NCBI GenBank assembly: GCA_041649175.1
Contig: JBAZNR010000001.1
Span: 158,934 to 222,933 of the forward strand
Length of the DNA stretch: 64,000 nucleotides
Direction of reading: 5' to 3'
From: Candidatus Omnitrophota bacterium
GTDB taxonomy: Bacteria > Omnitrophota > Gorgyraeia > Zapsychrales > JBAZNR01
Position numbers and translations under genes: made by a program. Of this stretch, positions 2,220 to 25,591 are shown piece after piece; the stretch's first letter is position 1, and the number at the start of each line of letters is the position of its first letter. The notes under the pieces are model-generated. The model ran no database searches and had not been told where the DNA came from. It saw only the letters and a program-made list of their open reading frames with translations.

Positions 2220-4298
2220 TTATTCTATCACAGGTTTTTTTCTTTCGTCGCGGAATATCGAAAGATTATTTTTTGCCCTCAAGAAGCGTTTTTGGATCTC
2301 TTTGGCCTTATATTCAAATTCTTGCCTCAAATTCTCCTGCCCCGTCTTTTTATAATAGTGCGCCAAATTAAGATAAGCGGCCGTATGGTTAGCATCAATT
2401 TCAATAGCCTTTTTAAAACATCGCTCAGCCCCTTCAAAATTCCCTACCCCGTCATAAGCGATACCTAAAACATTGTAGGCATCCGCGTATTGTGGATTGA
2501 TCACCAACGCTTGAATATTAGCCGAGATAGACTGAGAATACATTTTTTGCGCCAAATATAAATTTCCCAACGCATAATAACTTTCCGCCGAATGAGGGTT
2601 ATGGCGAATGGCTGTTTTAAAATAATTCTCGGCATCCCCAAAATTATTTAAACGCATATAAATATTACCTAAATTTAAATACGGAACATCGCTTTGAGGG
2701 CGAATACTAGCTGCTTTATAATATTGCGCCGACGCAAATTCAAGCTGCCCCTGCTGATAATAAAGGTTTCCTAAGTTAACATTAGCTTCAAACGATTGAG
2801 GATCAATACGCAAAACTTCTTCCCATTGTCGCTGAGCCTCGCTCACTTTTCCTTTCTTAAAATAGATCTGCCCAAGATTAATGCGGGCAACCGTGTATCG
2901 GCTATCTAAGGCGATCGCCCTTTCATACTGCGCTTGAGCTAGATCCAAGAAACCTTTTTCTTGATAAAAAAGCCCCAAATTATTATGCGGCCTGGCTTTA
3001 GTGGGAGATTTTTTAACAACATCTTCCAATAGAATGATCGGATGAGCCCAAAAAATGTTGCGCGCAAAGGTCAGCAAAAGGAGGCTTAAGACAATACCGC
3101 TAAGAAGAATGACATATTGTTCTTTTTTCGTAAAAATAGCACGAAGCCCCCAAGAGACCAAGAAGGAAAATCCGATCACGGCCACATAAAGACGGTGTTC
3201 AAAAATAAGATCAGGTAGAGGGAAAATGGTTGACTCAGGGATCAAAACAATAAAAAACCACGCCACGCAAAATGATATCACCGGATTTTTTTTGCGCAAC
3301 AGATAGGCCGCAATAATGATAGAAGTTAAAGCAATGAGAGAAAGAACGGCCGGTAAGGAAAATAAATTCCTCACCAAGGAATAGTCGTAATCCAAATTCT
3401 GGTTTATCGGAAGAAATAAAAGCTGAATATATTTTACGAGAACCACCCATTGAGTTAAAAGATAATCCCAGCGCGAAACCTCCGAAGTGACGCGGGTCGC
3501 ATAAGTTAATTTTGAAAGGTCAAAAGACTCCGAGAAGTAATTCAGCGAGAAAAGAATAAGAAAGACCGGGACAAGAACAACCGTTGCAAGAAAAGGAAGT
3601 AAAAGAACGGCTTCTTTTTTGATCGTTTTCCATGACAAGCGGAAAAATAGAGCTTCATAAAGCAAAACCACTAGCGGCACAGTCACAAAGATAGGCTTGG
3701 TCATTGCCCCTAAAAGAACAACACCCCAAAGACACTGATAATCCTTTATCTTAAAACCTTTCTTTAAACGAAGATACAAAATCAAAGCAAGTGTATACGC
3801 GATCGTAGCCAAAATGGTCGAGCGTTGCACAATATAAGTCACAGATTCCGTTTGGATGGGATGCAAAAGAAATATCAAAGCGCTAAAAAATGCGATGAGC
3901 CCCTGGTCTTTACTACTAGCTTGGTGATCTTTCGATGCAAGGCATAACGTCTCACGGATCAGATAAAAAACTAAGATCGCGCAAATCGCGTGGAGAAGAA
4001 AATTAACAAGATGAAACCCAAAAGTATTAAAACCGGAAAAGTGATAATTAAGCGCGAATGTCAGATGGGTTAAAAATCGGCTTGGATCATACCAAAAGAG
4101 CTTATCGAGAGAATCTAAATGCCGAATGAGCGGATTTTTAAAAATAACGGGAATGTCATCGAGTTGGAACGGGGAGGTAAAACCGCGTCCGTAGGCAATA
4201 ACACCTAAAACGATCACAGCGATCGTAAGCTTAACAACGGACCTTTGCGTGAGCAAGCGAGCAACTGATTTGAAATTTAGCAAGAAACCACCGATCAA
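2220..4298 (-). CDS. TMTC/DUF1736-like GT-C membrane glycosyltransferase homolog with C-terminal TPR array (paralog A)
   Basis: Multi-TM N-terminus with 'FQLDDIPVIF', 'HLVNFLLH', 'LHPIQTESVTYIVQRST'; C-terminal half has at least 8 TPR-like repeats (…YERAIALDSRY…, …NLGNLYYQQGQ… etc.). Confidence 0.6.
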   Translation of the reverse strand: MIGGFLLNFKSVARLLTQRSVVKLTIAVIVLGVIAYGRGFTSPFQLDDIPVIFKNPLIRHLDSLDKLFWYDPSRFLTHLTFALNYHFSGFNTFGFHLVNFLLHAICAILVFYLIRETLCLASKDHQASSKDQGLIAFFSALIFLLHPIQTESVTYIVQRSTILATIAYTLALILYLRLKKGFKIKDYQCLWGVVLLGAMTKPIFVTVPLVVLLYEALFFRLSWKTIKKEAVLLLPFLATVVLVPVFLILFSLNYFSESFDLSKLTYATRVTSEVSRWDYLLTQWVVLVKYIQLLFLPINQNLDYDYSLVRNLFSLPAVLSLIALTSIIIAAYLLRKKNPVISFCVAWFFIVLIPESTIFPLPDLIFEHRLYVAVIGFSFLVSWGLRAIFTKKEQYVILLSGIVLSLLLLTFARNIFWAHPIILLEDVVKKSPTKARPHNNLGLFYQEKGFLDLAQAQYERAIALDSRYTVARINLGQIYFKKGKVSEAQRQWEEVLRIDPQSFEANVNLGNLYYQQGQLEFASAQYYKAASIRPQSDVPYLNLGNIYMRLNNFGDAENYFKTAIRHNPHSAESYYALGNLYLAQKMYSQSISANIQALVINPQYADAYNVLGIAYDGVGNFEGAERCFKKAIEIDANHTAAYLNLAHYYKKTGQENLRQEFEYKAKEIQKRFLRAKNNLSIFRDERKKPVIE

Positions 4299-4329
4299 TT
4301 CTTAAACAACCTTTTGACTGATTTCCGTT

Positions 4330-5109
4330 TTAAATAAAATCTTTAATTTTATCCATGAACGATTTAGAATCGAACGTATTATCAATTTCTATCGGCTTCT
4401 CTTTGTTTCGGATCTTTTTCCCCCGTCCGCCTAAAACAAATTGCCCCCATTGAGAATGTGGCGTTTGCTCTTTAGGCTCAATAAGAGAATAAACAACGAC
4501 GGAAACCTGCTTTGCCGCCGGGCAATCATCAAGGGCCTTTATGATCTCATCCGAACTTATTTCCGAAAAACTATACTGCAGAATAAAAAGGTCCGGCAGC
4601 AACTGCAGCGCCTTGCCTAAAGCCTGGTGGCCATCTGCCGCTAAGCTCACCTGGTAACCTTTCGCTTCCAGCTGCGCTTTCATTTCCTGCAGCCGAGCAG
4701 GATTAGTGCCCGCGATCAAGGCCGTCTTGGCTGCGCTTGACGACTTTACAGCGCCAGCTAATAATTTTTTAACTTGAAAAATCAGGTCTTCCGGCTCAAA
4801 AGGTTTGGTTAAAAATGATTGTACTCCTAAACTTTCAAAAGAGTCTTTCATCGCCCCGCGACCCGTCATGACCAAAACCGGAATATGCGCGATCCTCGGG
4901 GTTTCTTTTAACTTCTTATAAAATTGAAATCCGTCCATGCGCGGCAACAAAATGTCTAAGATGATCAGGTCGAACATATTCTCTTTCAAAGTCTCTAGCC
5001 CCTCTATTCCGTCGAGAACGGCAAGGACTTCAAACCCAGAGCGTTCTAATTTAAGCTTAATGAGTTCAGCGATCGCCCGATCGTCTTCGATCACCAAGAT
5101 TTTTTGCAT
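4330..5109 (-). CDS. response regulator: REC domain plus a second REC-like domain lacking the phospho-Asp (pseudo-receiver), no DNA-binding output
   Basis: MQKILVIEDDRAIAELI…DLIILDILLPRMDG…LTKPF (canonical REC); the second domain has 'DLFILQYS' in place of the acceptor Asp. Confidence 0.7.
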   Translation of the reverse strand: MQKILVIEDDRAIAELIKLKLERSGFEVLAVLDGIEGLETLKENMFDLIILDILLPRMDGFQFYKKLKETPRIAHIPVLVMTGRGAMKDSFESLGVQSFLTKPFEPEDLIFQVKKLLAGAVKSSSAAKTALIAGTNPARLQEMKAQLEAKGYQVSLAADGHQALGKALQLLPDLFILQYSFSEISSDEIIKALDDCPAAKQVSVVVYSLIEPKEQTPHSQWGQFVLGGRGKKIRNKEKPIEIDNTFDSKSFMDKIKDFI

Positions 5110-5142
5110 AAATATCCCTCAAATAATGGCACGGTAAATAAT

Positions 5143-6972
5143 TTACTGCTTAGATCTAAGTAAAATTTCTAAGTTGCGCCTAGCAGGTTTAAAATCCGGA
5201 TTAATTTCCAAGGCCTTATGAAGCCACTCTTGCGCATCTCCCGATTTTTCTTCCTGCACGTAACATAAGGCCAAATTGTTCATAGCCCAAATATTACGCG
5301 GCTGCAGTTGAATAGCTTGTTTAAAACATTCTTTTGCTTTCGCTGTGTTTTTCAGTGAAAAATAGGCACTGCCTAGGCTTGCATATGAATCACCATCCCC
5401 AGGATCAATGACCAGGGCTTTTGAATATTCTTCAATAGCCTGTTGCATATTTTGCTGAGCAGCATAACACTGCCCTGATCCACGATAGACATCTCTAAGA
5501 AAAATGTCATAGATGCCCTCTTTCCCTTTTAACTTAGCTTTAGCCGCATACTCTTGCATTATGTTTAGAGCTTTCAAATATTCATCTAGGGCTTTGTCAT
5601 ATTCACCCGCAGAGTAATACGCCTTGGCTAATAAAGTGTGAACGCGTCCTAATTGGCCCTGAAATTTTAAGGTTCGTTCAAAAAGCGGTATTTCTCCCCG
5701 CCAATAAGTATTTTGTTTGATCGTTGCGCCCAAAAAAATTAAAACAACCACAATGAAGAATATCGAAAAGATATTTTGAGATCTTTCTTTTAAGAAAGTA
5801 TCCGAAAGATATTTTAGCGTAGCAACCATGAATAACACAAATCCGCCTAGCGGCAAGTAAAGAAAATGCTCCGAAGTCATAATGGACGAGTATTCAATAA
5901 TAAGCGGCATGATATTAAGAACGGGCAAGATCCAAATAAAGAACCACCCTAACGCGAATAATAAAATAAGCCGATATTCTTTTGAAACTATTTTAAAGAT
6001 CGCTATAATTCCAGCCAAAACTGCCACAATCCCAGCCATAGAACGCCAGGAAAACTGTAAAATATCTATGCTGCGGTAATAATGCAGATCGACGGGAACA
6101 AAAAGAATGGCGAGGTAATCAAGGAGGGTCTTAGGGATTATCCTAATCCTTAGCCATAATTCTTCGGGGTAATCTAGGAAGGATGTTGAGAATGTTCCAA
6201 GGATAAATTTCCGGAGGATAAAATACCCAGCGGCCACGGCCAGAAACCCGCCAACACAAAAAACAGTTTTACCAAAGTCTTTTTTCTCGCTCCGATAAAA
6301 AACCCACTCGAATAAAAAGATCAATGCCGGTAATACAATGGCTTGTTCTTTGGCAAGCAATGCCATTATGAAGAATGCCAACGATGAGATATAGGAAGAG
6401 ACTTGGGATCTTTTATTGCGGCTTTCCCTGGCCTGCAAATAGAAAATAAAGCTCAGTAAACACAATAAAGCAAAAACAAGGTTCGAGATCCCCGATATAC
6501 AACTCACAGATTCCGTTTGAACAGGATGGAGCAGAAATAAAACAGCAGCTACAAAAGAAACCTTCTTTTCTTTTAAGAAATAAGTTAAGACCCGAAAGAA
6601 CAAAATCGCATTGATAATGTGGAGGAGGATGTTCACCAAATGGTATCCATGCGCATTCAATCTGAAAAAGAAGAATTCAACTTTGTAAATGACCTCAAGT
6701 AATGGCCGATAATACGGGTTGACAGCAGCTCGAGCCCCCTCCATTGAAACAGGCTCAAGAAAATATGCCGCAAGATTATCCCAACGCCCAATCAAAGGAT
6801 TATTTTGGATGAATACTACATCATCATGGACAAAGGGATGAAAGATGGCATTGGCATAACCCAAAAGCCCTAGAACAACTAGACAAATCGTAACTTTTTG
6901 CAAGTTTAAAACAACAAAGAAGTTCTCGGTTACTTGCTGCCACGCTTTAAATTGTTTTTCCATAAGCGACAA
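5143..6972 (-). CDS. TMTC/DUF1736-like membrane protein with C-terminal TPR repeats (paralog B, divergent)
   Basis: 'FHPFVHDDVVFIQNNP', 'HLVNILLHIINAILFF', 'LHPVQTESVSCISG' (the QRST part of the motif is degenerate); C-terminal TPRs. Confidence 0.55.
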   Translation of the reverse strand: MSLMEKQFKAWQQVTENFFVVLNLQKVTICLVVLGLLGYANAIFHPFVHDDVVFIQNNPLIGRWDNLAAYFLEPVSMEGARAAVNPYYRPLLEVIYKVEFFFFRLNAHGYHLVNILLHIINAILFFRVLTYFLKEKKVSFVAAVLFLLHPVQTESVSCISGISNLVFALLCLLSFIFYLQARESRNKRSQVSSYISSLAFFIMALLAKEQAIVLPALIFLFEWVFYRSEKKDFGKTVFCVGGFLAVAAGYFILRKFILGTFSTSFLDYPEELWLRIRIIPKTLLDYLAILFVPVDLHYYRSIDILQFSWRSMAGIVAVLAGIIAIFKIVSKEYRLILLFALGWFFIWILPVLNIMPLIIEYSSIMTSEHFLYLPLGGFVLFMVATLKYLSDTFLKERSQNIFSIFFIVVVLIFLGATIKQNTYWRGEIPLFERTLKFQGQLGRVHTLLAKAYYSAGEYDKALDEYLKALNIMQEYAAKAKLKGKEGIYDIFLRDVYRGSGQCYAAQQNMQQAIEEYSKALVIDPGDGDSYASLGSAYFSLKNTAKAKECFKQAIQLQPRNIWAMNNLALCYVQEEKSGDAQEWLHKALEINPDFKPARRNLEILLRSKQ

Positions 6973-7000: not shown

Positions 7001-7423
7001 CTACTTAATCACCCAGCTCCCGTCCTCATTTTGAATTTTATCTCCGGCCGCCGCTTTATCTTTCTGAACTTGAGCAAAGACCTTCTCAATGGTTTCTAAG
7101 GCATTTGTCAAATTGTTTTGTTGTTCAATAGCCCGATAAATACTCTTCCTGTCATTATTCTCAGAAGCAACCAACGATTTTGCGCTTGCATCGTCAATAA
7201 GGGCAACAACATACCCGCGATTTCCCTCGCCGACAATACCTTGGCTTTTTAGCTGACGCAACTGTTCATAACGATTTTTCCGGTTTTCCAGGGCCGACTT
7301 TACCTCGGGGGTCATTTCCTTGATATCGTAACTGCTTTCGCAAAATACGGTATGCGGATTTATTGCCGATATAAAAAAAGCTGCATACGCCACAAGTACT
7401 GCTCTCAATAACATTCTAGACAT
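7001..7423 (-). CDS. DUF1318 / YdbL-like periplasmic protein
   Basis: Signal peptide; 'QGIVGEGNRGYVVAL…SENNDRKSIYRAIEQQN' matches the G-x-VGE…G-Y-L and EN-x-DR…Y core of the YdbL family. Confidence 0.5.
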   Translation of the reverse strand: MSRMLLRAVLVAYAAFFISAINPHTVFCESSYDIKEMTPEVKSALENRKNRYEQLRQLKSQGIVGEGNRGYVVALIDDASAKSLVASENNDRKSIYRAIEQQNNLTNALETIEKVFAQVQKDKAAAGDKIQNEDGSWVIK

Positions 7424-7440
7424 ATTCTTTCTCCTTAAAA

Positions 7441-7638
7441 TTATTTTGTTTGTGTATTTGTTTGTTCTTTTTCACCGCTTACAAAATCTTCAATACTGCT
7501 GGCGGTATCTTTGAGCCCTTTGACATCAATGGTGATATGCGCATTAATGGTGATGGGCCGTTGCGGATCACCGACAGCTTTGACCGTACATCCGCACGCA
7601 AAAAATGCGAGCAGAAATATCGCTATCCATCTATTCAT
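7441..7638 (-). CDS. small lipoprotein, YnbE-like by position and composition (start moved to the internal Met)
   Basis: MNRWIAIFLLAFFACGC lipobox; mature part is a short beta-rich peptide 'PITINAHITIDVKGL'; sits between the YdbH-like and YdbL-like genes as in ydbH-ynbE-ydbL. Confidence 0.4.
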   Translation of the reverse strand: MNRWIAIFLLAFFACGCTVKAVGDPQRPITINAHITIDVKGLKDTASSIEDFVSGEKEQTNTQTK

Positions 7639-7677
7639 AAAATCCCCTTTCTCCGTATTTGACTTTAGCATGTATTC

Positions 7678-8703
7678 TTAAAATTTCTTTAGCAGCCGTC
7701 CAAACGCATTATCTAAATTGACATCGATCGTTAAATTGATATCTAAATTTAATTCTTGGCTGGCCAAATTCACCACTCCCTGCAAATTCTTCTCGCTTAA
7801 GGTATTAAAATAAACAGAAAGTTTATCGAGTCCGACATCGCCCCCAGCCGACGATAGAGCCTCCAAATCGCGTTTTTGAACACTGTTGTAGGGCAATTTG
7901 TCGGCAATAAAATCCAGCAGAGAAGCTTTTATTCTCGCATCCTTAAAAACGCTCAAATCCGCTTCGAGCTGTCTTATCTTTTGGATATTCCCCGCCATAT
8001 TGACAACGCCGCTTAAATGCCCTTTGACCTGAGAAAAAATATCGGGATGTGAACGCGCGATCAATTCTAAGTCGACGTTTTCAAGATTTATACGAGCACT
8101 ATACGGCAACAAAGAAGCGTAATCCAGAAAGATTTCCCCCTTGATATCTCCTTTATAAAATTGGGCGGAAAGATCATTAAGGTGAACTTTTTTGTTATCG
8201 CCCTTAAAATGTGACCGGATGTTTTGAGCCGAATAATCGTACGCCAACAATTGCTGAGCTTTAAAATATCCACTTATTTGTTCTAGATCGATTCCCTGGA
8301 CACCAAAAGACACATCGAGCGAAAGGCCCTGAATTGTCGCCGGAAAAAATGAAATATCCGCTTCTTTCAAAGAACAAAATATCTCTTTCTTTGGCTTTAA
8401 GAAACCGCTCATTTGTTTAAGCTCTATGATCTTAACTGAAATCGCTTGTTTCTGGCCTGAGCTTTCGATGCTTAATTTTACGTCCTCGAGGATCAACCTT
8501 GCCGGAAAATAAAACCGCTGATGGCTGCATTCAAAAGATTGAACTTTCACATCTCTGAACGAAGAATGGATGATATTCCGTACGGCAAAAGGTGTGAGCA
8601 ATGTCGAATTTAATACAAAATAAAAAGCTCCCAAGCCGATCGCGACTAACACTAAAAACCCAATGCCTATTTTGATAATAATTTTCATAATCGCTTCCAT
8701 CAA
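7678..8703 (-). CDS. AsmA/YdbH-like N-terminal-anchored periplasmic protein (short, 341 aa)
   Basis: Single N-terminal TM then a soluble domain; gene order with the downstream lipoprotein and DUF1318 gene mirrors E. coli ydbH-ynbE-ydbL. Confidence 0.35.
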   Translation of the reverse strand: MMEAIMKIIIKIGIGFLVLVAIGLGAFYFVLNSTLLTPFAVRNIIHSSFRDVKVQSFECSHQRFYFPARLILEDVKLSIESSGQKQAISVKIIELKQMSGFLKPKKEIFCSLKEADISFFPATIQGLSLDVSFGVQGIDLEQISGYFKAQQLLAYDYSAQNIRSHFKGDNKKVHLNDLSAQFYKGDIKGEIFLDYASLLPYSARINLENVDLELIARSHPDIFSQVKGHLSGVVNMAGNIQKIRQLEADLSVFKDARIKASLLDFIADKLPYNSVQKRDLEALSSAGGDVGLDKLSVYFNTLSEKNLQGVVNLASQELNLDINLTIDVNLDNAFGRLLKKF

Positions 8704-8708
8704 ATATA

Positions 8709-10766
8709 TTACAGCTGATTTTCCTTCTTTAGGTAACGATTGCGCAATGCTTGAGCCTTGTTTCCATTACCCTTTTGTTCGTAGATCCTCACAGCGCTTT
8801 CCATAGCTGCCTTAGCATCCTTTTCTCGATCTAGCCCGTAGTAGACATTGGCTAGGTTTTCATAGCTTTCCGCGTCGTCAGGATTAAACGTAAGAGCTTT
8901 TTGAAAAATCTTTTCAGCTTCAGGTAAATTCTTCTTAAGGACGTAAACTTTTCCTAAATTATGGTAAGCCAAAGAAAAATCTGGTTTTATTTTCAATAAT
9001 TGTTCGTACTGCTTGATCCCTTCGTCATATTGCCCCATCATCCCATAAGTGCTCGCCAAACCATTATGGGCATTGAGATGATACGGATTATTCTCAATGG
9101 ATTTTTTAAATTGGTCGATCGCTTCCATATATTTTCCCTGACGCGCGTAAAGATTTCCCAGATTGCAATAAGCATCCGCATAATGCTCGTCGATAGCGAT
9201 CGCGGCTTTATATGAGAGTTCGGCTTTCTTTACGTCGTTTTTATTGTGATATAAATACCCTAAATTAAAGTAATAACTTGGATGCGGGCGGCCATCGTCT
9301 TTGTCAATGGCCTCTCGATATTTACGCATCGCCTCATCAATTTTCCCCTGCCGCTCATAAACAACGCCTAAATTATGATGAAACTGGGGATTTTTCGGGT
9401 CTAATTCAATAGCTTTTTTCACATCCCGTTCCGCGAAACTCAGATTTCCTATACGCAAATAATAATCACCGAGATTATTCGCGACACGAGCCTTGTGAGG
9501 AGATTTGCGGAATGTATCAATGAGAAGCGTTTCTTGATTAGCCCAAACATTATTCCTGAGGATCGTCAGGCCCGCAAGCCCTACGGCTATTATCAAAAGA
9601 ATGCCCGTAGCTTTCTTAAGATCGCGACACATGTTCATAACGAGGACAGGAATGAGAATGCAAAAGCCGACCATCGGCAAATAAAGACGATGCTCAAAAA
9701 TAACGTCCGAAATAGGGAAAATACTTGATTCCGGGATCAAGGTTATAAAAAACCAGAGGATCCCAAAACTATAGATCTTATTCGTTTTATAAACTTTTCC
9801 GGCAAAATAAAGCAAATAGCCCAAGATCAATAAGGAGAAAAAGGTCGGAAAGCTGAACATCCCCGGGGAGAGAGGATAATCATAATCAAAATTCTGCCGT
9901 AATGGCAAAAACAAAAGGCGGATATAAGTGATCAAGACATTGATCTGGGTGCTGAAATAAGTATACCGAGAAAACTGACTTGTTTCTTTGGTCGCGTCTA
10001 AAACTTGCGCCAAATCAATGGTTTCGTTTTTCCAGAGCAAAAGTAGCGCCGGAACCAAGACCCAAAGCACCATAAACGGCGCAATAAATTTTAACCTTTT
10101 GAATAGGTCAGAAAAAGGAGTCCTTAAAACACACAACTCCGCGATCACTAAAGCTAGAGGAAGAGTAACAATATTTGGCTTCGTCATGCTGCCTAAGATC
10201 GCACAAAGAAACGATAGAGCAAAATAAATCCTTTTTTCTTTCAAGCGCGCCAAAAGATAAAAAACAACAGAAGCCATATAAAATAAAGCAACCATCACCG
10301 TCGATCTCTGGACAATATACGTGACAGATTCCGTTTGGATAGGATGCAGCAAGAAAATCAATCCGGAGAAAAATGCCATTCTACGGGCATTAACCGCTAG
10401 ACGAGGTTCTTGCAACAAGAAAATTCCCACAAAGTGGAAAACAAGAATACTGCAGATGATATGCAAAATAAGATTTACAAGATGAAAAGAGAACACATTC
10501 AATTTACCGATAAAGAAATTGAAAGCGAACGTCAAATGCGGCAAGAAACGCGTAGGATCAAAACGCCAGACCCACTGCGGATTTTCTAAATGATGAACGG
10601 GCGGATTTTCGACGATGATCTTATAATCATCAAATTGAAAGCCGCTGTGAAGGCTGTTGCTATAGGCAAGAAATCCTACGGCGCAAAAAACAATAGCAAC
10701 CGCTATAAAAAAGCGTTTGTGGGCCGGAATGATATTTTGGATTTTCTGAAAGCTGGTTAAAAGCAT
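8709..10766 (-). CDS. TMTC/DUF1736-like GT-C membrane glycosyltransferase homolog plus TPR array (paralog C)
   Basis: 'FQFDDYKIIVENP', 'HLVNLILH', 'LHPIQTESVTYIVQRST'; C-terminal TPRs. Confidence 0.6.
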   Translation of the reverse strand: MLLTSFQKIQNIIPAHKRFFIAVAIVFCAVGFLAYSNSLHSGFQFDDYKIIVENPPVHHLENPQWVWRFDPTRFLPHLTFAFNFFIGKLNVFSFHLVNLILHIICSILVFHFVGIFLLQEPRLAVNARRMAFFSGLIFLLHPIQTESVTYIVQRSTVMVALFYMASVVFYLLARLKEKRIYFALSFLCAILGSMTKPNIVTLPLALVIAELCVLRTPFSDLFKRLKFIAPFMVLWVLVPALLLLWKNETIDLAQVLDATKETSQFSRYTYFSTQINVLITYIRLLFLPLRQNFDYDYPLSPGMFSFPTFFSLLILGYLLYFAGKVYKTNKIYSFGILWFFITLIPESSIFPISDVIFEHRLYLPMVGFCILIPVLVMNMCRDLKKATGILLIIAVGLAGLTILRNNVWANQETLLIDTFRKSPHKARVANNLGDYYLRIGNLSFAERDVKKAIELDPKNPQFHHNLGVVYERQGKIDEAMRKYREAIDKDDGRPHPSYYFNLGYLYHNKNDVKKAELSYKAAIAIDEHYADAYCNLGNLYARQGKYMEAIDQFKKSIENNPYHLNAHNGLASTYGMMGQYDEGIKQYEQLLKIKPDFSLAYHNLGKVYVLKKNLPEAEKIFQKALTFNPDDAESYENLANVYYGLDREKDAKAAMESAVRIYEQKGNGNKAQALRNRYLKKENQL

Positions 10767-16681: not shown

Positions 16682-17413
16682 TCACTTTCTTAGCCTGAAC
16701 CCTAAATAAAAAAGTGGACGCAAAATGCTCCACCATCCGATAACGGGTTGCATTTTCGTATATCCAAGTTTTTTCGGAGGATAAATTTTCGTCACACCAA
16801 CTTCCCTGACGCGATAACCCAATGTCACGGCTTTAAAGAAAAGATACGGTTCTAATTCGTAAGCGTTTAGCCACTCCTGCCTTAAATTGATCCGTTCATC
16901 TTTGCACAGAGCCAGACGAAAAGCGCGAAACCCGTTGGTACTGTCCGTAATTTTTTTTCCGGTAAAAAGCGAGAATAATAAAGGATGTAGCCGGGTTGCG
17001 AGTTTTCGATAAAGCGGCATGGCGCCCCCGGCGCCATTTTTCTTTTTGTAGCGGGAACCCTGAACAAAATCAAACCCTTCTTTAAAGATCGGTTCCAGCA
17101 ATTGCGGGATCTCATCCGGATTATCTTTGTCATTGCCCGCCATGATCACCAAAACATCATAGTGTTTTTCTAAAGCATAATTGATCGCCGTACGAATGGC
17201 GGCTCCAACTCCCCGGCGCTGAGGATGACGAATGGTTTTAACCCCGCGCGAAGCAAAACTTTCGATCATCTGCGTCGTTCCATCGGTCGACCCGTCATCA
17301 ACGATCAAATAATCGACTTGAGTGACGACCGGACTTCTTAAAAAACGCTCAATAACGCTTTTTAATTTTATATGTTCATTGAAGGCAACCGGAGAGACAA
17401 GGACTTTATTCAT
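16682..17413 (-). CDS. GT2 glycosyltransferase, Dpm1-like polyprenyl-phosphate sugar synthase (soluble catalytic domain only)
   Basis: 'LIVDDGSTDGT', 'FVQGSRY', 243 aa, no TM. Matches dolichol/polyprenol-phosphate mannose or glucose synthase catalytic subunits. Confidence 0.65.
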   Translation of the reverse strand: MNKVLVSPVAFNEHIKLKSVIERFLRSPVVTQVDYLIVDDGSTDGTTQMIESFASRGVKTIRHPQRRGVGAAIRTAINYALEKHYDVLVIMAGNDKDNPDEIPQLLEPIFKEGFDFVQGSRYKKKNGAGGAMPLYRKLATRLHPLLFSLFTGKKITDSTNGFRAFRLALCKDERINLRQEWLNAYELEPYLFFKAVTLGYRVREVGVTKIYPPKKLGYTKMQPVIGWWSILRPLFYLGFRLRK

Positions 17414-17969
17414 CCAACTTTAATCCCTGGGAAGTCAGTGAATAAAATAGCCCGCAGGAGCATCGCAGAGAATCATCCAATCTTTTCCCACAGCGACAGG
17501 CATAACCCTTGGGTTCGGCCGGGTGGCCGACGACGATAGCAAAGGGCGCGACATCTTTTGTCACAACGCTTCCCGCGCCGATAAAAGCATATTCACCGAT
17601 CGTAATGCCGCATAAAAGCGTAACATTCGCTCCGATGGTTGCTCCTTTTTTAACAAGTGTCTTTTCTAAAACCCAAGGGTCTTTACGATGGCTGCGCGGA
17701 TGACGATCATTAATAAAAGCTGTGTTCGCTCCGCAAAAAACATCATCTTCTAAAGTAATTCCGCTAAAGATCGAAACACCGTTTTTGATCGTAACATGAT
17801 TACCGACGATAGCCCCTTTTTCGATAAAACATCCGTCACAAATATTGCAATGCTCTCCAACAAAAGCACCGTCTTGAATATTCACAAAGGCCCACACGCG
17901 GGTTTTCTTACCGACTTTGGCTTTTTTCCCGACCAATGCTGTTTTATGTTTAAAATAATTTGCCATCAT
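17406..17969 (-). CDS. left-handed beta-helix (hexapeptide) sugar N-acetyltransferase, WbpD/WlbB-like
   Basis: Repeated [LIV]-G-x-x-x-x hexapeptides throughout; overlaps the upstream oxidoreductase. Confidence 0.65.
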   Translation of the reverse strand: MMANYFKHKTALVGKKAKVGKKTRVWAFVNIQDGAFVGEHCNICDGCFIEKGAIVGNHVTIKNGVSIFSGITLEDDVFCGANTAFINDRHPRSHRKDPWVLEKTLVKKGATIGANVTLLCGITIGEYAFIGAGSVVTKDVAPFAIVVGHPAEPKGYACRCGKRLDDSLRCSCGLFYSLTSQGLKLDE

Positions 17970-18985
17970 TACAAAACCTCAACGGGAACACCGCGTTTTA
18001 CAATAGATTCCTGGATAGCGCACAAAGTACGCACCACATCTGCGGCTTTTTGCGCATCCGCCAGATCCGGATTCTTATTTTTCTCAACACAATCAATGAA
18101 ATACTGACTTTGCAATTTTAAGGGTTCCGCTAAACCGATCTTAGGGATCGTGATGCTTCCCTCTTTGGATAAAAGCTGGAATTCGCCGTAGGACTCATAA
18201 AAAACGGCTGTCCGCTCGACGTGTTTGTCATAAAGCTTAACAGGGCCATTATTATCCAAATCGTCCCAGATCACCATTTTTTTATCGCCGACAATGGTGA
18301 TCTGCCGGACTTTTCTAGGGTCAAGCCAACTGACATGAATATTCACAAGAATATTCTTAGGATATTCTAACGTGGCGAATGCTAAATCTTCTAAAGAGTT
18401 TCCGAGGCATTTTTGCCCGCGAGCGGAAACACTGATCGGACAGCTGTCTAACAAATAATTAAAAATAGAAATATCGTGCGGCGCTAAGTCCCAAAGCGCG
18501 TTGACATCGTAACGAAAAGGCCCCAGATTCGTACGCTCCGAATGGGCATAGTAGACTGATCCCAATTCCCCGGATTTGATATATTCTTTGAGGCGGACAA
18601 TACCGGCGTTAAAAACAAAAACATGTCCCACCATGAGGATCTTATTTTTCTGTGAAGCCAGCTCTTTTAATTCACGGCATTCTTTAGCTGTGAGCGCTAA
18701 CGGCTTCTCGCAAAGAACATGCTTATTGTTTTCCAGAGATTCTTTGACCAAGGCATAATGGCTGTTGGTCGGTGTTGCGATGCAAACAGCCGTGATTTCG
18801 GGATTTTTTAAAATTTCCTTATAATCAGAAACAGCCGTTACGGATGGGAACAAACCTTTAATGGCTTTAAGTCTTTCCGCATCCAGGTCAGCGCACATAG
18901 CGACTTTTGAGTTCGCCCCCTGAGAAAAAATACGGATATGATTGGGGCCCCAATGCCCGCAACCGATAACGCCAATGGTAACCAA
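17969..18985 (-). CDS. Gfo/Idh/MocA-family NAD-dependent sugar oxidoreductase, WbpB/WlbA-like
   Basis: 'MVTIGVIGCGHWGPNH' Rossmann N-terminus; typical fold length. Confidence 0.7.
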   Translation of the reverse strand: MVTIGVIGCGHWGPNHIRIFSQGANSKVAMCADLDAERLKAIKGLFPSVTAVSDYKEILKNPEITAVCIATPTNSHYALVKESLENNKHVLCEKPLALTAKECRELKELASQKNKILMVGHVFVFNAGIVRLKEYIKSGELGSVYYAHSERTNLGPFRYDVNALWDLAPHDISIFNYLLDSCPISVSARGQKCLGNSLEDLAFATLEYPKNILVNIHVSWLDPRKVRQITIVGDKKMVIWDDLDNNGPVKLYDKHVERTAVFYESYGEFQLLSKEGSITIPKIGLAEPLKLQSQYFIDCVEKNKNPDLADAQKAADVVRTLCAIQESIVKRGVPVEVL

Positions 18986-19171: not shown

Positions 19172-19603
19172 ATGAATATTAAAAATATGGCCTCAACTCA
19201 GAATCTGCGATCGGCTTCTCTTTTTTTGGGAGCGCTCGTCATTATTTCCATCCATATTCATACTCTCATCAAGGAAACAACAAAAAACCAACAACTTCGC
19301 CAAAACGTTCCCGCTCAATTTCTGGGTTATAAATTCGCCGGGCTTGAAGAAACACTGCGCGATGTGCGCTATATTGGCTATTACAGCGATAAAAGCCTTG
19401 ATGACCGCGTTTTTGCCGCGCAATTTGCCCAGGCGCAGTACATCTTAACTCCGGCTATTTTGGATTTTAACAATACTGATCATGATTTCATCCTTTTTGA
19501 TTGTTCCACGGAAGATATTGCCATGAGAAAAATAAAACAGATCGGCGCTGTTCCTTTGAAGAAAAACCAATTCGGGATCATCTTAGCAAGAAAAATAAAA
19601 TGA
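19172..19603 (+). CDS. hypothetical small protein with N-terminal TM
   Basis: ORF track; its TGA stop overlaps the ATG of the next gene (ATGA at 19600-19603). Confidence 0.3.
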   Translation: MNIKNMASTQNLRSASLFLGALVIISIHIHTLIKETTKNQQLRQNVPAQFLGYKFAGLEETLRDVRYIGYYSDKSLDDRVFAAQFAQAQYILTPAILDFNNTDHDFILFDCSTEDIAMRKIKQIGAVPLKKNQFGIILARKIK

Positions 19604-20955
19604 CCGCCATTTTCCCTTATCTACTCTCAACAGCTTTAGGTTATTTGCTGATAAGGACTTTATTTAGAAATCAAACTCCGGTCAGCATTTATTTTTACTT
19701 CTTTGTTTCCATTGGCGCCGGTTTAGGCTTAAGCACTTACATAACTTTCTTTAGTTTTCTTTTATTTGATCAATTAAATCAATTTTTTGTTCTTGCGGCA
19801 CACGCAGTAATCCTATGCCTATTTATTTTGACCGGAAAATTTCTCCTAAAACTTTCCTGGAAAGATCTCTTTATCGTCAGGAAATTTTGCACTCGGGAGC
19901 TTTTATTGTTCCTGATCCTTATTTTTGCCTCTGTTCCCCTGCTTATCCACTGCCAATTTTATCCCAATGGCGGCTGGGATGCCTGGTCTTGTTGGAACTT
20001 AAAAGCCCGTTACCTTTTTCTCGGCGGCGAAGAGTGGCAAAATATGCTAAACCCAATTCTGTGGCGCTCCAGCCCTCACTATCCGCTTCTTTTACCTCTT
20101 ATTAATGTCTGGGGGTGGATGTTCTCTGACCAGACGCTACCGGCAACCCCGATGATCACCTCGGTCGTATTCACGTTCATCACATCCGGGCTTTTGCTCT
20201 TTAGCTTAAATGAAATAACATCCAAGATCGCGTCTGCTTTAGGTATGCTGCTTATAGCCGTGTTGCCGTTTTTTGTGACCATCGGAACAAGCCAGTACTG
20301 CGATATTGTTCTAGGTTATTTTCTTTTAGGGAGCTTTGTTTGCGCGATTCTTGGTATTCGGAAAAATTCTTTGCCTTTGATCGCTTTATCGGGATTGTTT
20401 CTTGGATTTTTGAGCTTCACAAAGCCGGAAGGAACGCTGGCTTCTTTACTGATCGTCTTTTTGTTTTGCGCGTATCTTGTTCTTCGGCAAACACAATTTA
20501 CCCCGAATTTCAGAAAAATTATTACGTATTTTCTAATAACATTTCTTTTTTCGGCCCTACCAACAATTCTTTTCCAGATCGTTTACTCTCCGGGAAATCA
20601 AACATTTATCAACGGGCTCTCTTCGTCATCTGATCCGTCTAATTTTTCCAGATTACAGCTCATCGGAAGTTTCTTTCTAGTGGAATTAGGAAGCCAAAAA
20701 TGGAACGGCCTTTGGATCTTTTTAGGAGTAGGAATTGTGCTTATGGGTAGGAAATGCTGGCAAGGAACAACGCTAATTTTGCCGCTATTTTTCTTAATTT
20801 ATCTTCTTACGATCTTCTTTTATTATTTTCTGAATACTTATTTTGCGGCCGCCTGGTGGCTATCCGTCACACTCAACAGAATTCTTCTAACACTGCTGCC
20901 TTCTGCTATTTTCTGGGTCTTTTCTTCTTTGGGCCGGCTCAGCCAAGAAAAATAA
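19600..20955 (+). CDS. polytopic membrane protein (about 12 TM), possibly a GT-C-type or polymerase-like enzyme. Start reassigned to 19600.
   Basis: MTAIFPYLLSTALGYLL…; Trp/aromatic-rich loops ('GGWDAWSCWNLKARY'); translationally coupled to 19172..19603. Confidence 0.4.
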   Translation: MTAIFPYLLSTALGYLLIRTLFRNQTPVSIYFYFFVSIGAGLGLSTYITFFSFLLFDQLNQFFVLAAHAVILCLFILTGKFLLKLSWKDLFIVRKFCTRELLLFLILIFASVPLLIHCQFYPNGGWDAWSCWNLKARYLFLGGEEWQNMLNPILWRSSPHYPLLLPLINVWGWMFSDQTLPATPMITSVVFTFITSGLLLFSLNEITSKIASALGMLLIAVLPFFVTIGTSQYCDIVLGYFLLGSFVCAILGIRKNSLPLIALSGLFLGFLSFTKPEGTLASLLIVFLFCAYLVLRQTQFTPNFRKIITYFLITFLFSALPTILFQIVYSPGNQTFINGLSSSSDPSNFSRLQLIGSFFLVELGSQKWNGLWIFLGVGIVLMGRKCWQGTTLILPLFFLIYLLTIFFYYFLNTYFAAAWWLSVTLNRILLTLLPSAIFWVFSSLGRLSQEK

Positions 20956-21441: not shown

Positions 21442-21506
21442 GCTGTCTCCTTTTTATTTCTGCCTACCACTAAACGGCTATTTATCTTTTTCGTTTAAAC
21501 TTGCCC

Positions 21507-23531
21507 TTATTGACTATTATAATTCTGCAATCGTCTTTGAGCAGAGTCAAGCATCTTTTTGTTGTTTTGATTTTCATAAAGCTTGATGGCGGCCGCTAAA
21601 ACTTTTTGAGCTTCATTGATCTGACCTATTTTATTTAAGGTATTCGCGAGATTAAAATACGCATTGGCAAATTGCACGTCAACAGCAATGGCTTTTTCAT
21701 AACAATCAATCGCTTCATCGTAGCGGCCAAGCATATCCGCAATATTACCCATATTATTATGTGCGGACGCCATTTTATCATCCCGCTTTGCCGCAGACTT
21801 ATACGCGTCATAGGCCATCTCGTATTTTTCTTCCGACACATAAATGTCGCCTAGGCTATAAAACGCGAAAGCAAAATCAGGGTTGAAACGAATGGCTTCG
21901 TAAAAATAAAACTTCGCCTTAGATAGGTCATTTTTCTCCAGATGAACACGCCCCAAACCCGCGTAAGCCGGCGCAAAAGTAGGATTTATCTCCAGGGCCT
22001 TGCGGTAGCTTTCCTCGGCAGCTTTCGAATCCCCTTTTTGCCTATGAACATTACCTAGATTATAATGAGGGCCATCGTAATTGGGTTTGATCTCAATGGC
22101 TAGGTTTAGCTCTGCTATAGCGCGGTCGATATCCCCTTTTTCAAAATAGATATTACCCAGATTATTATGCGGATGCGCGTAATGGTTATCGAGCGCGATC
22201 GCCTTCTCATATTCTTGCTGCGCTTTTTCCAGAAAACCTTTTTCGTGATAGACGACCGCCAAGTTATTATGGACCCTGGCCTTGCCCGGTGATTTTCTAA
22301 CGATATCTTCCAGAAATCCCAATCGATCAGACCAAACAATATTCCTTTGATAACTTAACACGGAAAGAATGCTGATCAATATCAATGCCGCGGCAATTTG
22401 CCATCTTCTAAGAGAAATAAATCGGAACAATAAAACCGCGCAAACAATGATAGCGCCGATCATCGGCAGATAAAGGCGATGTTCAAAAATAACGTCGGCA
22501 ATAGGGAAAAAACTTGATTCTAAGCTTAACGTTAGAAAGAACCAAGAAATACCGAATGCGATCAATTTTTGCTTCTTATAGATTTGCATGGCAAGAATCA
22601 ATATTCCAAAGAGAATACAAAAAGAGAAAAAAGTAGGAAACGAAAAAAAGCTACGCGCGATCGGGTAATCGTAATCCAAGTTCTGATGGACAGGAAAAAC
22701 CAACAGGCGTAAATAGGTTACAAGGACATTGAACTGCGTTAATAAATAATCTCCCCTAGAAATACTGTTCGTTTCCCGCGTTACGTCCAAAAGCCTGGTC
22801 AAATCCCATGATTTGTACTTCCATAGCATTAAAAGAGAAGGGACAGCGACAATCATAAAGACAAATGGCAAAAAAGCTAAGATTATTTTTTTATCCCTCT
22901 TAAAAGAAAAATCCAGGAAAAATATTTCCAGCAGAATAATGGCAAAAGGCAAAGTAATAATAATGGGTTTTGTAAAAAGCCCCACAAAAGCAACGGCAAC
23001 CGAAAAAATATAGAAAATTAATTTCTTTTCTTGGCGAAATCGCACATATAAAAGCAGAGCGAGCAAATAGCACGCACCCGCCAAAAGCGTTGAGCGCTGC
23101 GAAACATATGTGACCGCTGATGTCTGCAGAGGATGAACAAGGAAAATAGCCGCCCCAAAGAAAGCCATGGCTTTCGCATCTTTTAAGGTCCGATTTTCTT
23201 TTAAACCTCTTTGAAATATTTCTTTCAGAAAAAGATAAACAAGGCCCGCTACCGCGAAATGAAGTAATAAATTAACCGCATGATAACCTTCCGGTTTTAA
23301 TCCGCCAAAAAAATAATTGACCGCAAAACTTAAGTGGGTCAAAAATCTCGACGGATCTGTCATCCAAATAACAAAAATACTGCGCAGATCCTTGATCGCC
23401 GAATCTTCAACGATAGTCATATAATCATCGAATTGAAAAGGCGCGCGCAAGGAAGGCCAATAAACACAAACCCCCAAAGCAAAAAGAATAAAAATGGAAA
23501 TGATCGGCGCGATCGCCTTATTTCTTTTCAT
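21507..23531 (-). CDS. TMTC/DUF1736-like GT-C membrane glycosyltransferase homolog plus TPR array (paralog D)
   Basis: 'FQFDDYMTIVEDS', 'HAVNLLLH', 'VHPLQTSAVTYVSQRST'; C-terminal TPRs. Confidence 0.6.
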   Translation of the reverse strand: MKRNKAIAPIISIFILFALGVCVYWPSLRAPFQFDDYMTIVEDSAIKDLRSIFVIWMTDPSRFLTHLSFAVNYFFGGLKPEGYHAVNLLLHFAVAGLVYLFLKEIFQRGLKENRTLKDAKAMAFFGAAIFLVHPLQTSAVTYVSQRSTLLAGACYLLALLLYVRFRQEKKLIFYIFSVAVAFVGLFTKPIIITLPFAIILLEIFFLDFSFKRDKKIILAFLPFVFMIVAVPSLLMLWKYKSWDLTRLLDVTRETNSISRGDYLLTQFNVLVTYLRLLVFPVHQNLDYDYPIARSFFSFPTFFSFCILFGILILAMQIYKKQKLIAFGISWFFLTLSLESSFFPIADVIFEHRLYLPMIGAIIVCAVLLFRFISLRRWQIAAALILISILSVLSYQRNIVWSDRLGFLEDIVRKSPGKARVHNNLAVVYHEKGFLEKAQQEYEKAIALDNHYAHPHNNLGNIYFEKGDIDRAIAELNLAIEIKPNYDGPHYNLGNVHRQKGDSKAAEESYRKALEINPTFAPAYAGLGRVHLEKNDLSKAKFYFYEAIRFNPDFAFAFYSLGDIYVSEEKYEMAYDAYKSAAKRDDKMASAHNNMGNIADMLGRYDEAIDCYEKAIAVDVQFANAYFNLANTLNKIGQINEAQKVLAAAIKLYENQNNKKMLDSAQRRLQNYNSQ

Positions 23532-25591
23532 TATTTTTTATTTTCGTTGAGTTTTTCTTCGATCGCTTCGGCTTTTTTTGTTTGCCCTTGGGCGCGATAC
23601 AATTTTACCGCTTGGCGGGCAGACTCTCTTGATTCTTCAAGGCGGCCGGATTCGTAGAGAGCATTGGCTAAATTAAAATACGCCTGAGCCAAGGAAGGAT
23701 CATGGCTAATGGCTTTTTCATAGTTCTCGATGGATTTTTGAAAATCACCAAAATAAAAAAAGACATTTCCTAAATTGTTAAGCGCATCGGCTAAATCAGG
23801 CTTTAATTGAATAGCCTGTTGATAACTCATCAATGCTTCATAAAAATTACTTTCCGTAAAATAAATATTCCCTAAATTATAATGCGCAAACGGATTTTGA
23901 GGATCAAGCCTTAGGGATTCTTGCAGGGCTGACTTTGCCTCCCCTGTACGTTTGGCGTCAGAATAAAGATTTCCTAATCCCGCATAGGCGGACGCGTTGA
24001 ACTTATCTAAGCTGATCGCCCGGTTAAAAGAATCCATGGCGGCATCAAAATCCCCCTTTTTCTGGGCGACAAGCCCTAAACCTAAGCACACCGAAGAATG
24101 ATCCGGATATTGTCCGGCGAGATTTAAAAGCAGTTTTTCCGCTTCCCGGATATTTCCTGTCTCGAGATAAACCATCGCAAGGTTATAGCGGGCCGTAAAA
24201 TAATCGGGGTCTAAGCTTAAAGCCTTAAGATATTCGGCCTGAGCTTCTTGAAATTTTCCTTTTGAGAAATAAAAATACCCTAAATTGTTATGCGGCCTGG
24301 ATTTTTGGGGTGATTTGGCAACAACGTCTTGCATAAATCTTAGGCCATTGCTCCAAAGATCATTTCTGACATAAGTCAGCACTGAAAATACAGCGACCAC
24401 GGCGACCATAACGCCAATGTATGCCTTTTTATCCTTAAAGAACTTATGAAGGATGGTACACAATAAAATTGCAAATCCAAAACATGATAAATAAACCCGA
24501 TGTTCGTTAATCACATCTGCCAGCGGAAAAATGCTTGAATCAGGTAAAAGGGCGATAAAAAATATGAAAATACCAAATGATACCAGGGGGCGTTTATTAA
24601 ATGATGTAGTCGCAATAAAAATGAGAAGGAAAATTCCCGCCAAAGATAGATACGTCGGAAATTCAAAAATGTTATGAACGATCCTAAAATCATAGTCTAG
24701 GTTCTGTCCGATGGGAACAAAAAGAAGCTGAAGATATTTCATCATGACATTGAACTGAGTGAACAAATAGCTGGGTTGCGGAATATTGAGATAACTTTGT
24801 GTTACAAGCGTTGTTAATTTCCCCATTCCAAAAAGAAAAAGAGGAATGGCCAGCATTGGAAGGACAAAACATAAAAACGTCACTCGCTCCCGCCATCCGG
24901 TATCTGGCTCATCATCTTTAAAGAAACACAACTGCACTAAGATCACGACTAAAGGCAGTGTTGCGATGATAGGTTTACTGAGCATCCCCAGAAAACAGAA
25001 GACGATCGCCCATAAATATAATTTAAAGTTCCGTTCAATTTTTCCTTTAAAAAAGAAATAGAGCGTTGCGACATAAAAGAAACCTGCCAGAACCGTTGAC
25101 CGCTGAACAATATAAGTAACCGCTTGTGTTTGGATGGGATGGAGCAGGAAGATGAGCGCGGTAAATAAAGAAATAAGGAAAGAACTGTCCTCATCCCAGG
25201 CGTTTTTTATCCGGGGCATCTGGAAGATCTGAAAACTAAAAAGAAAAACAAAAAAGCTCGTCATGATGTGGATCAGCAGGTTAACCAAATGCCATCCAAA
25301 AACATTGAGCTTGAATGCCAAGTAAGTTGCAAGAAAGGTAAGATTGGTGAGAAATCTGGAGCGGTCATATTCCCAAAGAGCGGGAAGGTCGAGATTTTTG
25401 ATGAGCGGATTATCCACGATCACCGCATGGTCATCAAACTGAAAATCACCCCAAAAGCTGCGGCTATAAGCGGCAAAAGCAGAAACAACGATGATCCAAA
25501 ATGCCGTCCGAAAACGCCGTGCTCCGGAGAAATATTCTAAAAAAGAAGAGCCGAATAGATCCGCGGCCGAAAAATAAGAAGTTTTGCTCAC
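23531..25591 (-). CDS. TMTC/DUF1736-like GT-C membrane glycosyltransferase homolog plus TPR array (paralog E)
   Basis: 'FQFDDHAVIVDNP', 'HLVNLLIH', 'LHPIQTQAVTYIVQRST'; its TAA stop shares one base with the ATG of paralog D (TAATG). Confidence 0.6.
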   Translation of the reverse strand: MSKTSYFSAADLFGSSFLEYFSGARRFRTAFWIIVVSAFAAYSRSFWGDFQFDDHAVIVDNPLIKNLDLPALWEYDRSRFLTNLTFLATYLAFKLNVFGWHLVNLLIHIMTSFFVFLFSFQIFQMPRIKNAWDEDSSFLISLFTALIFLLHPIQTQAVTYIVQRSTVLAGFFYVATLYFFFKGKIERNFKLYLWAIVFCFLGMLSKPIIATLPLVVILVQLCFFKDDEPDTGWRERVTFLCFVLPMLAIPLFLFGMGKLTTLVTQSYLNIPQPSYLFTQFNVMMKYLQLLFVPIGQNLDYDFRIVHNIFEFPTYLSLAGIFLLIFIATTSFNKRPLVSFGIFIFFIALLPDSSIFPLADVINEHRVYLSCFGFAILLCTILHKFFKDKKAYIGVMVAVVAVFSVLTYVRNDLWSNGLRFMQDVVAKSPQKSRPHNNLGYFYFSKGKFQEAQAEYLKALSLDPDYFTARYNLAMVYLETGNIREAEKLLLNLAGQYPDHSSVCLGLGLVAQKKGDFDAAMDSFNRAISLDKFNASAYAGLGNLYSDAKRTGEAKSALQESLRLDPQNPFAHYNLGNIYFTESNFYEALMSYQQAIQLKPDLADALNNLGNVFFYFGDFQKSIENYEKAISHDPSLAQAYFNLANALYESGRLEESRESARQAVKLYRAQGQTKKAEAIEEKLNENKK

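Follow-up and report, generated by a model that had tools for sequence, protein, structure and literature searches.

Five TMTC-like membrane proteins with tetratricopeptide repeat arrays as probable periplasmic glycosyltransferases in a Candidatus Omnitrophota bacterium

TMTC1-4, the eukaryotic protein O-mannosyltransferases, are assigned to CAZy family GT105 (PMC10214176). Their ligand-binding motifs, M1 to M7, were described by Eisenhaber et al. (2021; PMC7801869), who located DUF1736 in the loop between transmembrane (TM) helices 7 and 8 and the HPIHTE motif at TM3 and external loop 2 (EL2). A His67Asp mutation of TMTC3 in cobblestone lissencephaly is cited in the same paper, which also mentions prokaryotic TMTC homologues in one sentence, and GT105 matches have been reported in surveys of bacterial genomes. 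Five genes for bacterial proteins of this type, paralogs A to E, lie in a 64,000-nucleotide stretch of a Candidatus Omnitrophota genome (GenBank assembly GCA_041649175.1, contig JBAZNR010000001.1, positions 158,934 to 222,933), referred to below as the window. The reading favoured here, with moderate confidence, is that all five encode inner-membrane GT-C glycosyltransferases homologous to TMTC1-4, which would pass a sugar from a lipid donor to an acceptor, probably a protein, held by their tetratricopeptide repeats (TPRs). Membership of the family is no surprise to specialists and does not make these genes a new class of system, because prokaryotic TMTC homologues and bacterial GT105 matches are already in the literature.

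Several other enzymes invite comparison. TfpW, the pilin D-arabinofuranosyl (D-Araf) transferase of Pseudomonas aeruginosa, is a protein of about 650 amino acids that is required for pilin O-glycosylation. By its description it is an inner-membrane GT-C enzyme whose N-terminus is cytoplasmic and whose 11 TM helices are followed by a TPR domain on the periplasmic side, with a DDX motif in the first periplasmic loop; the window proteins are predicted to be built likewise. The first-pass annotation of this DNA, made from the sequence alone, had stated that bacterial members have no assigned function; TfpW, likened here by described architecture, is a characterised bacterial enzyme that joins a GT-C module to TPRs. 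TMEM260, a metazoan O-mannosyltransferase, likewise combines an 11-TM GT-C module with a TPR-like C-terminus, and distant bacterial homologues of it have been reported; it has no significant sequence similarity to TMTCs (PMC10214176), whereas the window proteins are clearly TMTC-like. The protein O-mannosyltransferases PMT/POMT (GT39; yeast Pmt1, Pmt2 and Pmt4) share only about 10% identity with the window proteins, which score below the cut-off of the PMT_2 model, and have, in place of the TPR array at the C-terminus, a MIR beta-trefoil domain that lies between helices on the luminal side. No MIR domain was matched in the five paralogs by Pfam. ArnT (GT83), to be compared along with the three-component systems for modification with undecaprenyl-phosphate sugars (GT2 synthase, flippase and GT-C transferase), differs in having no TPR domain and in acting on lipid A.

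The proposed kinship with TMTC1-4 was borne out by profile comparison. The TMTC side consisted of eight sequences (human and Drosophila TMTC1-4, from the alignment in Additional file 1 of PMC7801869), and the bacterial side of a C-type profile of 68 N-terminal domains and a B-type profile of 49 sequences. With hhalign, the C-type profile aligned to TMTC1-4 from TM1 to TM11 (probability 100%, E=2.4e-40, 374 aligned columns) and the B-type profile with E=1.4e-36. The negative controls, reversed TMTC (E 0.25-0.62) and an unrelated 484-amino-acid membrane protein of the window (E 0.32), gave nothing comparable. The 484-residue protein, which resembles PMT_2, was considered as a sixth paralog; it was rejected on this E value, and it had no sequence relatives in the PDB. 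Paralog C also matched human TMTC3 directly in BLASTP (E=6e-23, 26% identity over 390 columns). These alignments show that the five proteins are true homologues of eukaryotic TMTC1-4 across the whole membrane domain.

All five open reading frames (ORFs) were found exactly where the first-pass annotation had placed them, on the minus strand (Table 1). The common architecture that it described was also recovered, since the proteins align end to end and each consists of a membrane domain with a TPR array on its C-terminal side. Its 9-11 TM helices became 11 when counted from AlphaFold models and the alignment to TMTC, while its six to nine TPR repeats suit paralog C and are too many for paralog B. 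Among A, C, D and E, identity amounts to 36-44% for the membrane domain and 29-37% for the TPR domain; B stands apart from these four, with 27-30% and 24-29% respectively. Each paralog matches a profile of the five at E<1e-147, a value that is circular because the profile was built from the same five sequences. Non-circular support for kinship comes from the end-to-end identity of the other paralogs to A (30-39%) and from thousands of foreign homologues, and at these levels chance likeness among the five is not at issue. The start codon of D and the stop codon of E share one base (TAATG), which makes co-translation of E and D probable.

Table 1. Positions of the five paralogs and of other genes discussed in the text (nt, nucleotides of the window; aa, amino acids)
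Feature	Position (nt)	Strand	Length (aa)	Membrane domain	DD motif	TPR domain	Remarks
Paralog A	2220-4298	minus	692	aa 1-417 (nt 3048-4298)	aa 47-48 (nt 4155-4160)	aa 418-692 (nt 2223-3047)	TPR domain predicted periplasmic
Paralog B	5143-6972	minus	609	aa 1-424 (nt 5701-6972)	aa 50-51	aa 425-609 (nt 5146-5700)	Divergent subfamily; short TPR domain, 4-5 repeats
Paralog C	8709-10766	minus	685	aa 1-408 (nt 9543-10766)	aa 46-47 (nt 10626-10631)	aa 409-685 (nt 8712-9542)	About 7 TPR repeats plus capping helix
Paralog D	21507-23531	minus	674	aa 1-400 (nt 22332-23531)	aa 35-36	aa 401-674	
Paralog E	23531-25591	minus	686	aa 1-413 (nt 24353-25591)	aa 53-54	aa 414-686	GTG start
Short GT2	16682-17413	minus	243				Pfam Glycos_transf_2; candidate polyprenyl-phosphate sugar synthase, link to paralogs inferred
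GT2 operon	16682-18985	minus					
GT-C-like membrane protein	19501-20955	plus	484				PMT_2 24.4 bits (cut-off 26.1); no TPR
Two-component genes	4330-5109 and 10850-13506	minus					
Genes between B and C	7001-8703	minus					
UPF0104 protein	30845-31828						LPG_synthase_TM
MFS-spermidine synthase fusion	34636-36963	minus	775				
GT4 fusion and overlapping gene	45551-49197	minus	722 and 499				
GtrA-domain protein	49202-51934	minus	910				

In the alignment of the five paralogs the invariant motifs are F-x-x-DD by the first helix (FQLDD, FVHDD and, in three proteins, FQFDD), H-x-V-N-x-x-x-H, H-P-x-Q-T-x-x-V, a Lys-x6-Pro pair and E-H-x-x-Y. The first three had been recognized in the first reading of the sequence. 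The longer consensus given there, running from LHP to QRST, proved only approximate, as D has VHPLQTSAV, E has QTQAV (the glutamate is not invariant) and B has SGISN for QRST. Among 357 family members D46 is conserved in 99%, D47 in 95%, H95, N98 and H102 in 98-100%, H141, P142 and Q144 in 99%, K196 in 97%, and E358, H359 and Y362 in 98-100%. The order of motifs is that of TMTC1-4: F-x-x-DD, (Y)RPL, YHLVNxxLH, HP(I/V)xTExV, a lysine in EL3, D-(W/Y) in EL4, P-x-S-(N/S) in TM9 and E-x-x-LY-x-P-x-x-G-F in EL5. The two families also have in common a C-terminal TPR array on the non-cytoplasmic side, predicted here, and several paralogs per genome.

The ligand-binding motifs themselves are kept to different degrees. 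The DD of M1 is present in all five proteins and aligns with the TMTC DD. M2 (SHKSYRP in TMTC) is reduced to its arginine by a 13-residue deletion in A, C, D and E and reads YYRPL in B. M3 (GRAD) corresponds to QRST in A, C, D and E, with the arginine kept and the aspartate replaced by threonine, and to GISN in B. M4, KE(T/Q)xxT, has become KPxxxT in A, C, D and E, which keep the lysine and replace the glutamate by proline, and is retained as KEQ in B. M5 (DW) is D-Y in A, C, D and E, with the aspartate kept, and LHYYR in B. M6 (PFIPASN) is partly matched by (T)LIPESS in A, C, D and E, and M7 (AERVLY) reads FEHRLY in A, C, D and E and EHFLY in B, so that glutamate and tyrosine are kept and arginine is replaced by histidine.

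Annotation libraries see only one half of these proteins. Pfam TPR families exceed their cut-offs in all five, whereas the isolated membrane domains gave nothing above cut-off in Pfam or NCBIfam; the only signals were sub-threshold, PMT_2 reaching 19 bits with E (cut-off 26.1) and GT-C_AftD 21 bits with B (cut-off 26). The Pfam match to DUF1736 that had been expected was therefore absent, and PMT_2 appeared only below threshold. As a positive control, PF08409 (TMTC_DUF1736) recognised residues ~256-335 in the N-domains of human TMTC1 and TMTC3 (E~1e-31). The HP..TE motif had been taken as part of DUF1736; since it lies at TM3/EL2 in TMTC and DUF1736 is the TM7-TM8 loop, the motif had been put in the wrong segment. 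The TM7-TM8 loop of the bacterial proteins is still aligned to TMTC by hhalign.

The predicted structures point in the same direction. Confident AlphaFold2 models were obtained for C (pLDDT 94.2, pTM 0.91) and B (pLDDT 89.4, pTM 0.88). A Foldseek search with the full-length C model returned TPR proteins only. Fold comparison with the B model ranked GT-C enzymes first, namely Pmt4 (20.8), Pmt2 (19.2), STT3B (18.7) and ALG12 (18.5), followed by AglB (18.0), ArnT (16.0), PglB (15.9) and AftA (15.8). Because GT-C enzymes head this ranking, the GT-C fold of the modelled membrane module is confirmed, as had been anticipated, with protein O-mannosyltransferases as its nearest solved relatives. The five N-domains, run as a profile against the sequences of the PDB, gave no match at E<=10, and PDB searches found neither a solved structure that combines such a membrane domain with a TPR array nor a solved full-length TMTC-like structure.

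Topology was assigned by the positive-inside rule to the 11 helices of the models, with hydrophobic cores set by eye. In all five paralogs lysine and arginine make up 19-35% of residues in predicted cytoplasmic loops versus 7-9% in outside loops. This bias, together with the 11 helices, places the C-terminus outside; the N-terminus is thus predicted to be cytoplasmic, and the DD loop, the conserved motifs and the TPR array to be periplasmic, which agrees with the periplasmic TPRs proposed earlier. The predicted periplasmic positions are loop 1 for DD, TM3/EL2 for HPxQT, EL3 for the lysine, EL4 for D/H-Y and EL5 for E-H-x-x-Y. This arrangement agrees with that of TMTC (PMC7801869) and with the experimentally probed topology of TfpW.

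Paralog B had been suspected of being non-catalytic owing to its loss of QRST. Its orthologous group comprises 564 matches, and the Omnitrophota orthologues are 40-50% identical to it, many with a precomputed PMT_2 match. In 49 B orthologues FVHDD, YYRP, HPxQ, G161-x-S163-N164, KEQ, LHYYR and EHxLY are invariant or nearly so, and B retains two TMTC motifs that are changed in the other four paralogs, YRPL and KEQ. The fixation of the variant residues across these orthologues argues for purifying selection on a functional site and not for decay, so that SGISN reads as a fixed subfamily signature and, with the DD kept, the suspicion does not hold. B probably differs from the other paralogs also in donor or metal handling. 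A reading in which some or all of the paralogs, B especially, are catalytically dead and serve purely as TPR scaffolds anchored in the membrane is very improbable. B does lack the arginine of QRST/GRAD and the aspartate of the DW-equivalent motif, and A, C, D and E lack the glutamate of the KE motif; yet DD, HPxQT, the EL3 lysine and E-H-x-x-Y are 95-100% conserved in the 357 members, the variants peculiar to B are themselves fixed, and the B model is a complete GT-C fold.

The family to which the five belong is very large. Out of 1.84 billion cluster representatives (50% identity), the membrane-domain profile matched 105,982 at E<=0.001 and, under the stricter limit of E<=1e-30, 28,145. Scanning of genomes revealed relatives in Omnitrophota, Planctomycetota, Desulfobacterota, Nitrospirota, Nitrospinota, Bacteroidales, Acidobacteriota, Hydrogenedentota and others. 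Foreign relatives are 50-52% identical to A, 44-47% to B, 46-48% to C and 51-61% to D (for D, in other Omnitrophota), and each of these four is closer to its foreign relatives than to its fellow paralogs (for A, 50-52% versus 41%). Since the foreign relatives are more similar than the paralogs are to one another, the duplications are old, and the paralogs belong to separate orthologous groups. In a set of 80 foreign loci carrying family members, on which all counts given below for other genomes rest, 27 contained at least two profile matches (E<1e-5) and up to five, some of the weaker ones being fragments or very weak. Multi-paralog arrays are therefore typical of the family and not special to the window. 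Denser arrays than that of the window are found in a Deltaproteobacteria metagenome-assembled genome (MAG; L071, 9854-19155), with five tandem paralogs and a GT2 gene embedded among them, in a Bacteroidales MAG (L026, 5171-13474), with four paralogs in strict tandem, and in an Omnitrophota single-cell genome (L003, 3421-13486), with five paralogs within 10 kb; these look like better experimental starting points. The divergence of the TPR domains suggests that the five copies of the window probably differ in acceptor.

Proteins of this family most likely add sugars to envelope molecules in the periplasm. In the mechanism favoured here, a small Dpm1/ArnC-like GT2 enzyme would load a sugar onto undecaprenyl phosphate (Und-P) at the cytoplasmic face, the lipid-linked sugar would be flipped to the periplasmic face, and the GT-C module would then hand on this one sugar to an acceptor that the TPR superhelix holds in the periplasm. 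The DD of loop 1 would supply the catalytic base or bind the metal, and the cluster of lysine, histidine and glutamate would handle the phosphate. A lipid-linked donor is suggested by knowledge of the family and by the gene neighbourhood. The acceptor would most likely be serine or threonine of folded periplasmic or envelope proteins, as for TMTC, PMT and TfpW; protein is favoured by analogy, because TMTC, the nearest folds Pmt4 and Pmt2, and TfpW all modify proteins.

The first-pass annotation had named a Dpm1-like GT2 gene of the window as the source of the donor. Its best NCBIfam likenesses are to dolichyl-phosphate hexose transferase, AglJ, PpgS and ArnC, with scores that all fall well short of the curated cut-offs, and it lies in an operon with genes for a UDP-GlcNAc-3-dehydrogenase-like oxidoreductase and a NeuD/PglB/VioB-type acetyltransferase. 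Elsewhere, 22 of the 80 loci have a GT2 homologue within 10 kb of a family member. In eight the GT2 gene directly adjoins the family gene in the same orientation (<=71 nt), and in two more it lies within 350 nt. The eight belong to Bacteroidales, Acidobacteriota, Deltaproteobacteria and Gammaproteobacteria, one of the GT2 genes being that inside the L071 array, and the GT2 genes adjoining family members likewise resemble polyprenyl-phosphate sugar synthases. Chance adjacency would be expected, roughly, for about three of 23 GT2 matches, and five Bacteroidales loci are possibly non-independent. The enrichment of GT2 genes by family members is real but modest. A role of the window GT2 as donor synthase is thus plausible from adjacency elsewhere, but it is weakened by the sub-threshold scores and by the separate operon. 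The UPF0104 (flippase-like) and GtrA genes, also pointed out in that annotation, are both present and show no linkage to the family (two and none of the 80 loci, respectively). No dedicated flippase linked to the paralogs was found, UPF0104 recurring only in those two loci.

Several observations weigh against the glycosyltransferase reading or parts of it. PF08409 gave no match at E<=10 in any of the five N-domains, and PMT_2 stayed below cut-off in the paralogs. The phosphate-binding arginine of TMTC ERxxY is an invariant histidine, the metal-binding glutamate of KE(T/Q) is proline in A, C, D and E, SHKSYRP has lost its SHK by deletion in these four, and B lacks the DW aspartate; with such substitutions at metal- and phosphate-binding positions, donor handling may differ from that of TMTC and between B and the other four. 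The donor lipid would also differ, being undecaprenyl in bacteria and dolichyl for TMTC, and bacteria lack the cadherin substrates. The window GT2 stands 4-6 kb from the paralogs in a separate sugar-modification operon. The adjoining gene for the 484-residue GT-C-like protein, divergently transcribed from that operon, may encode its real partner, the two forming an ArnC/ArnT-like pair. GT2 genes are common in general, and adjacency is found in only ~10% of loci. The neighbours of the paralogs are housekeeping genes held by synteny, which give no clue to the acceptor. No functional or biochemical study of a bacterial member was found in the literature searched, and periplasmic TPR domains bind polysaccharides in other systems.

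The last point bears on the alternative that the same enzymes, using the same donor, glycosylate a lipid or glycan, whether lipid A, the core of lipopolysaccharide (LPS), a polymer of the cell wall or an exopolysaccharide, in the manner of ArnT, the GtrC-type modifiers of O-antigen or the Aft/Emb arabinosyltransferases, the TPR array binding the polymer or docking onto an export machine. In keeping with it, the TPR domains score, below cut-off, against the periplasmic TPR polysaccharide-export proteins BcsC, PgaA and PrsT, the GT2 operon resembles a UDP-HexNAc modification pathway typical of LPS and glycan synthesis, and envelope lipid-transport genes (Mla, AsmA-like) are nearby. These envelope genes, however, are kept by synteny of the whole backbone and have no specific linkage to the paralogs. 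The closest family of known function, TMTC, and the closest folds, Pmt4 and Pmt2, glycosylate proteins, and TfpW, the only characterised bacterial enzyme found with this architecture, modifies a protein. A non-protein acceptor is for these reasons judged unlikely, though it is the most serious of the alternatives considered.

The likeness to TfpW raises a further alternative, in which each paralog would build up a short homo-oligosaccharide, with a polyprenyl-phosphate sugar as the source, and also transfer it to a specific surface protein, for example a pilin. Architecture, size and DDX motif are those of TfpW, which has been proposed as both polymeriser and transferase of D-Araf. The tfpW gene, however, lies directly downstream of pilA and beside genes for D-Araf synthesis, whereas a search of the whole window for N-terminal motifs of type IV pilins, which would have hinted at a TfpW-like role, found none, and a Pfam survey of the window found no DprE-like arabinose genes. 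Moreover, the sequence kinship demonstrated is to TMTC, which adds single mannoses. Such a TfpW-like activity is considered improbable, and transfer of a single sugar by the TMTC-type enzymes is preferred.

Extended to the whole family, the favoured reading would mean that many phyla carry out TMTC-type periplasmic O-glycosylation, with paralog arrays choosing folded proteins through their TPRs, a single sugar supplied on Und-P by a Dpm1-like GT2, and animal TMTCs descended from this bacterial family. This wider proposal is tentative and is held with less confidence than that for the five genes. With no Pfam or NCBIfam model for the membrane domain and with 'tetratricopeptide repeat protein' as the only name at NCBI, a very large probable glycosyltransferase family lies hidden in annotation; 'protein O-mannosyl-transferase' is the automatic name of relatives in two JGI records. 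The value of the locus lies in exposing this very large annotation gap and in offering a testable hypothesis. As a bacterial counterpart of human TMTC1-4, a member of the family could offer a tractable way into the mechanism and structure of TMTC. Should the acceptors prove to be proteins, this would be a form of bacterial protein O-glycosylation that is widespread and lies outside the known PglL, PglB and PMT routes. The recurring tandem arrays would lend themselves naturally to work on substrate choice by TPRs.

The gene order around the paralogs is kept in related Omnitrophota at ~56% protein identity: Mla, YggT, YbaB, E, D, GreA and a reverse-strand membrane protein, followed by the oxidoreductase, the acetyltransferase, the GT2, SpoU, an HD protein, an M48 peptidase and a PAS kinase. 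Most neighbours in the window do not recur near family members in the 80 foreign loci. A dedicated glycosylation island was rejected on these two grounds, conservation of the whole order pointing to backbone synteny in a small genome. The word 'system' in the first-pass annotation accordingly overstates the layout, which is one of five genes in a syntenic housekeeping backbone. At the position of the 484-residue protein, the related genomes (L081 and L082) have a reverse-strand gene of 459 amino acids.

Other genes of the window deserve brief mention. The two-component genes around A, B and C encode a response regulator, an Hpt protein and a hybrid PAS histidine kinase with a receiver domain; the position of the kinase is conserved in L081 and L082, and two-component genes stand by family members in 8-10 of the 80 loci, which is their usual abundance. 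Between B and C lie genes for an AsmA-like protein (341 amino acids), a 76-residue ORF product whose signal (FFACGC) is like that of lipoproteins and which contains a PITIN motif, and a DUF1318 protein. This trio resembles the E. coli envelope lipid-transport operon ydbH-ynbE-ydbL, apart from the much shorter AsmA-like protein. The GtrA-domain protein is an unusual fusion of an N-terminal GtrA/DPMS membrane domain and a large region with a weak match to an 'oligosaccharide amylase' model (27.9 bits); no homologue of it occurs near family members in the 80 loci. Next to it, a GT4 domain is fused to an alpha/beta-hydrolase domain, and the gene overlaps one whose product has an acyltransferase domain as well as a site for phosphopantetheine binding; the pair may form a glycolipid synthesis module. 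A further fusion joins an MFS transporter domain to a spermidine/spermine synthase domain.

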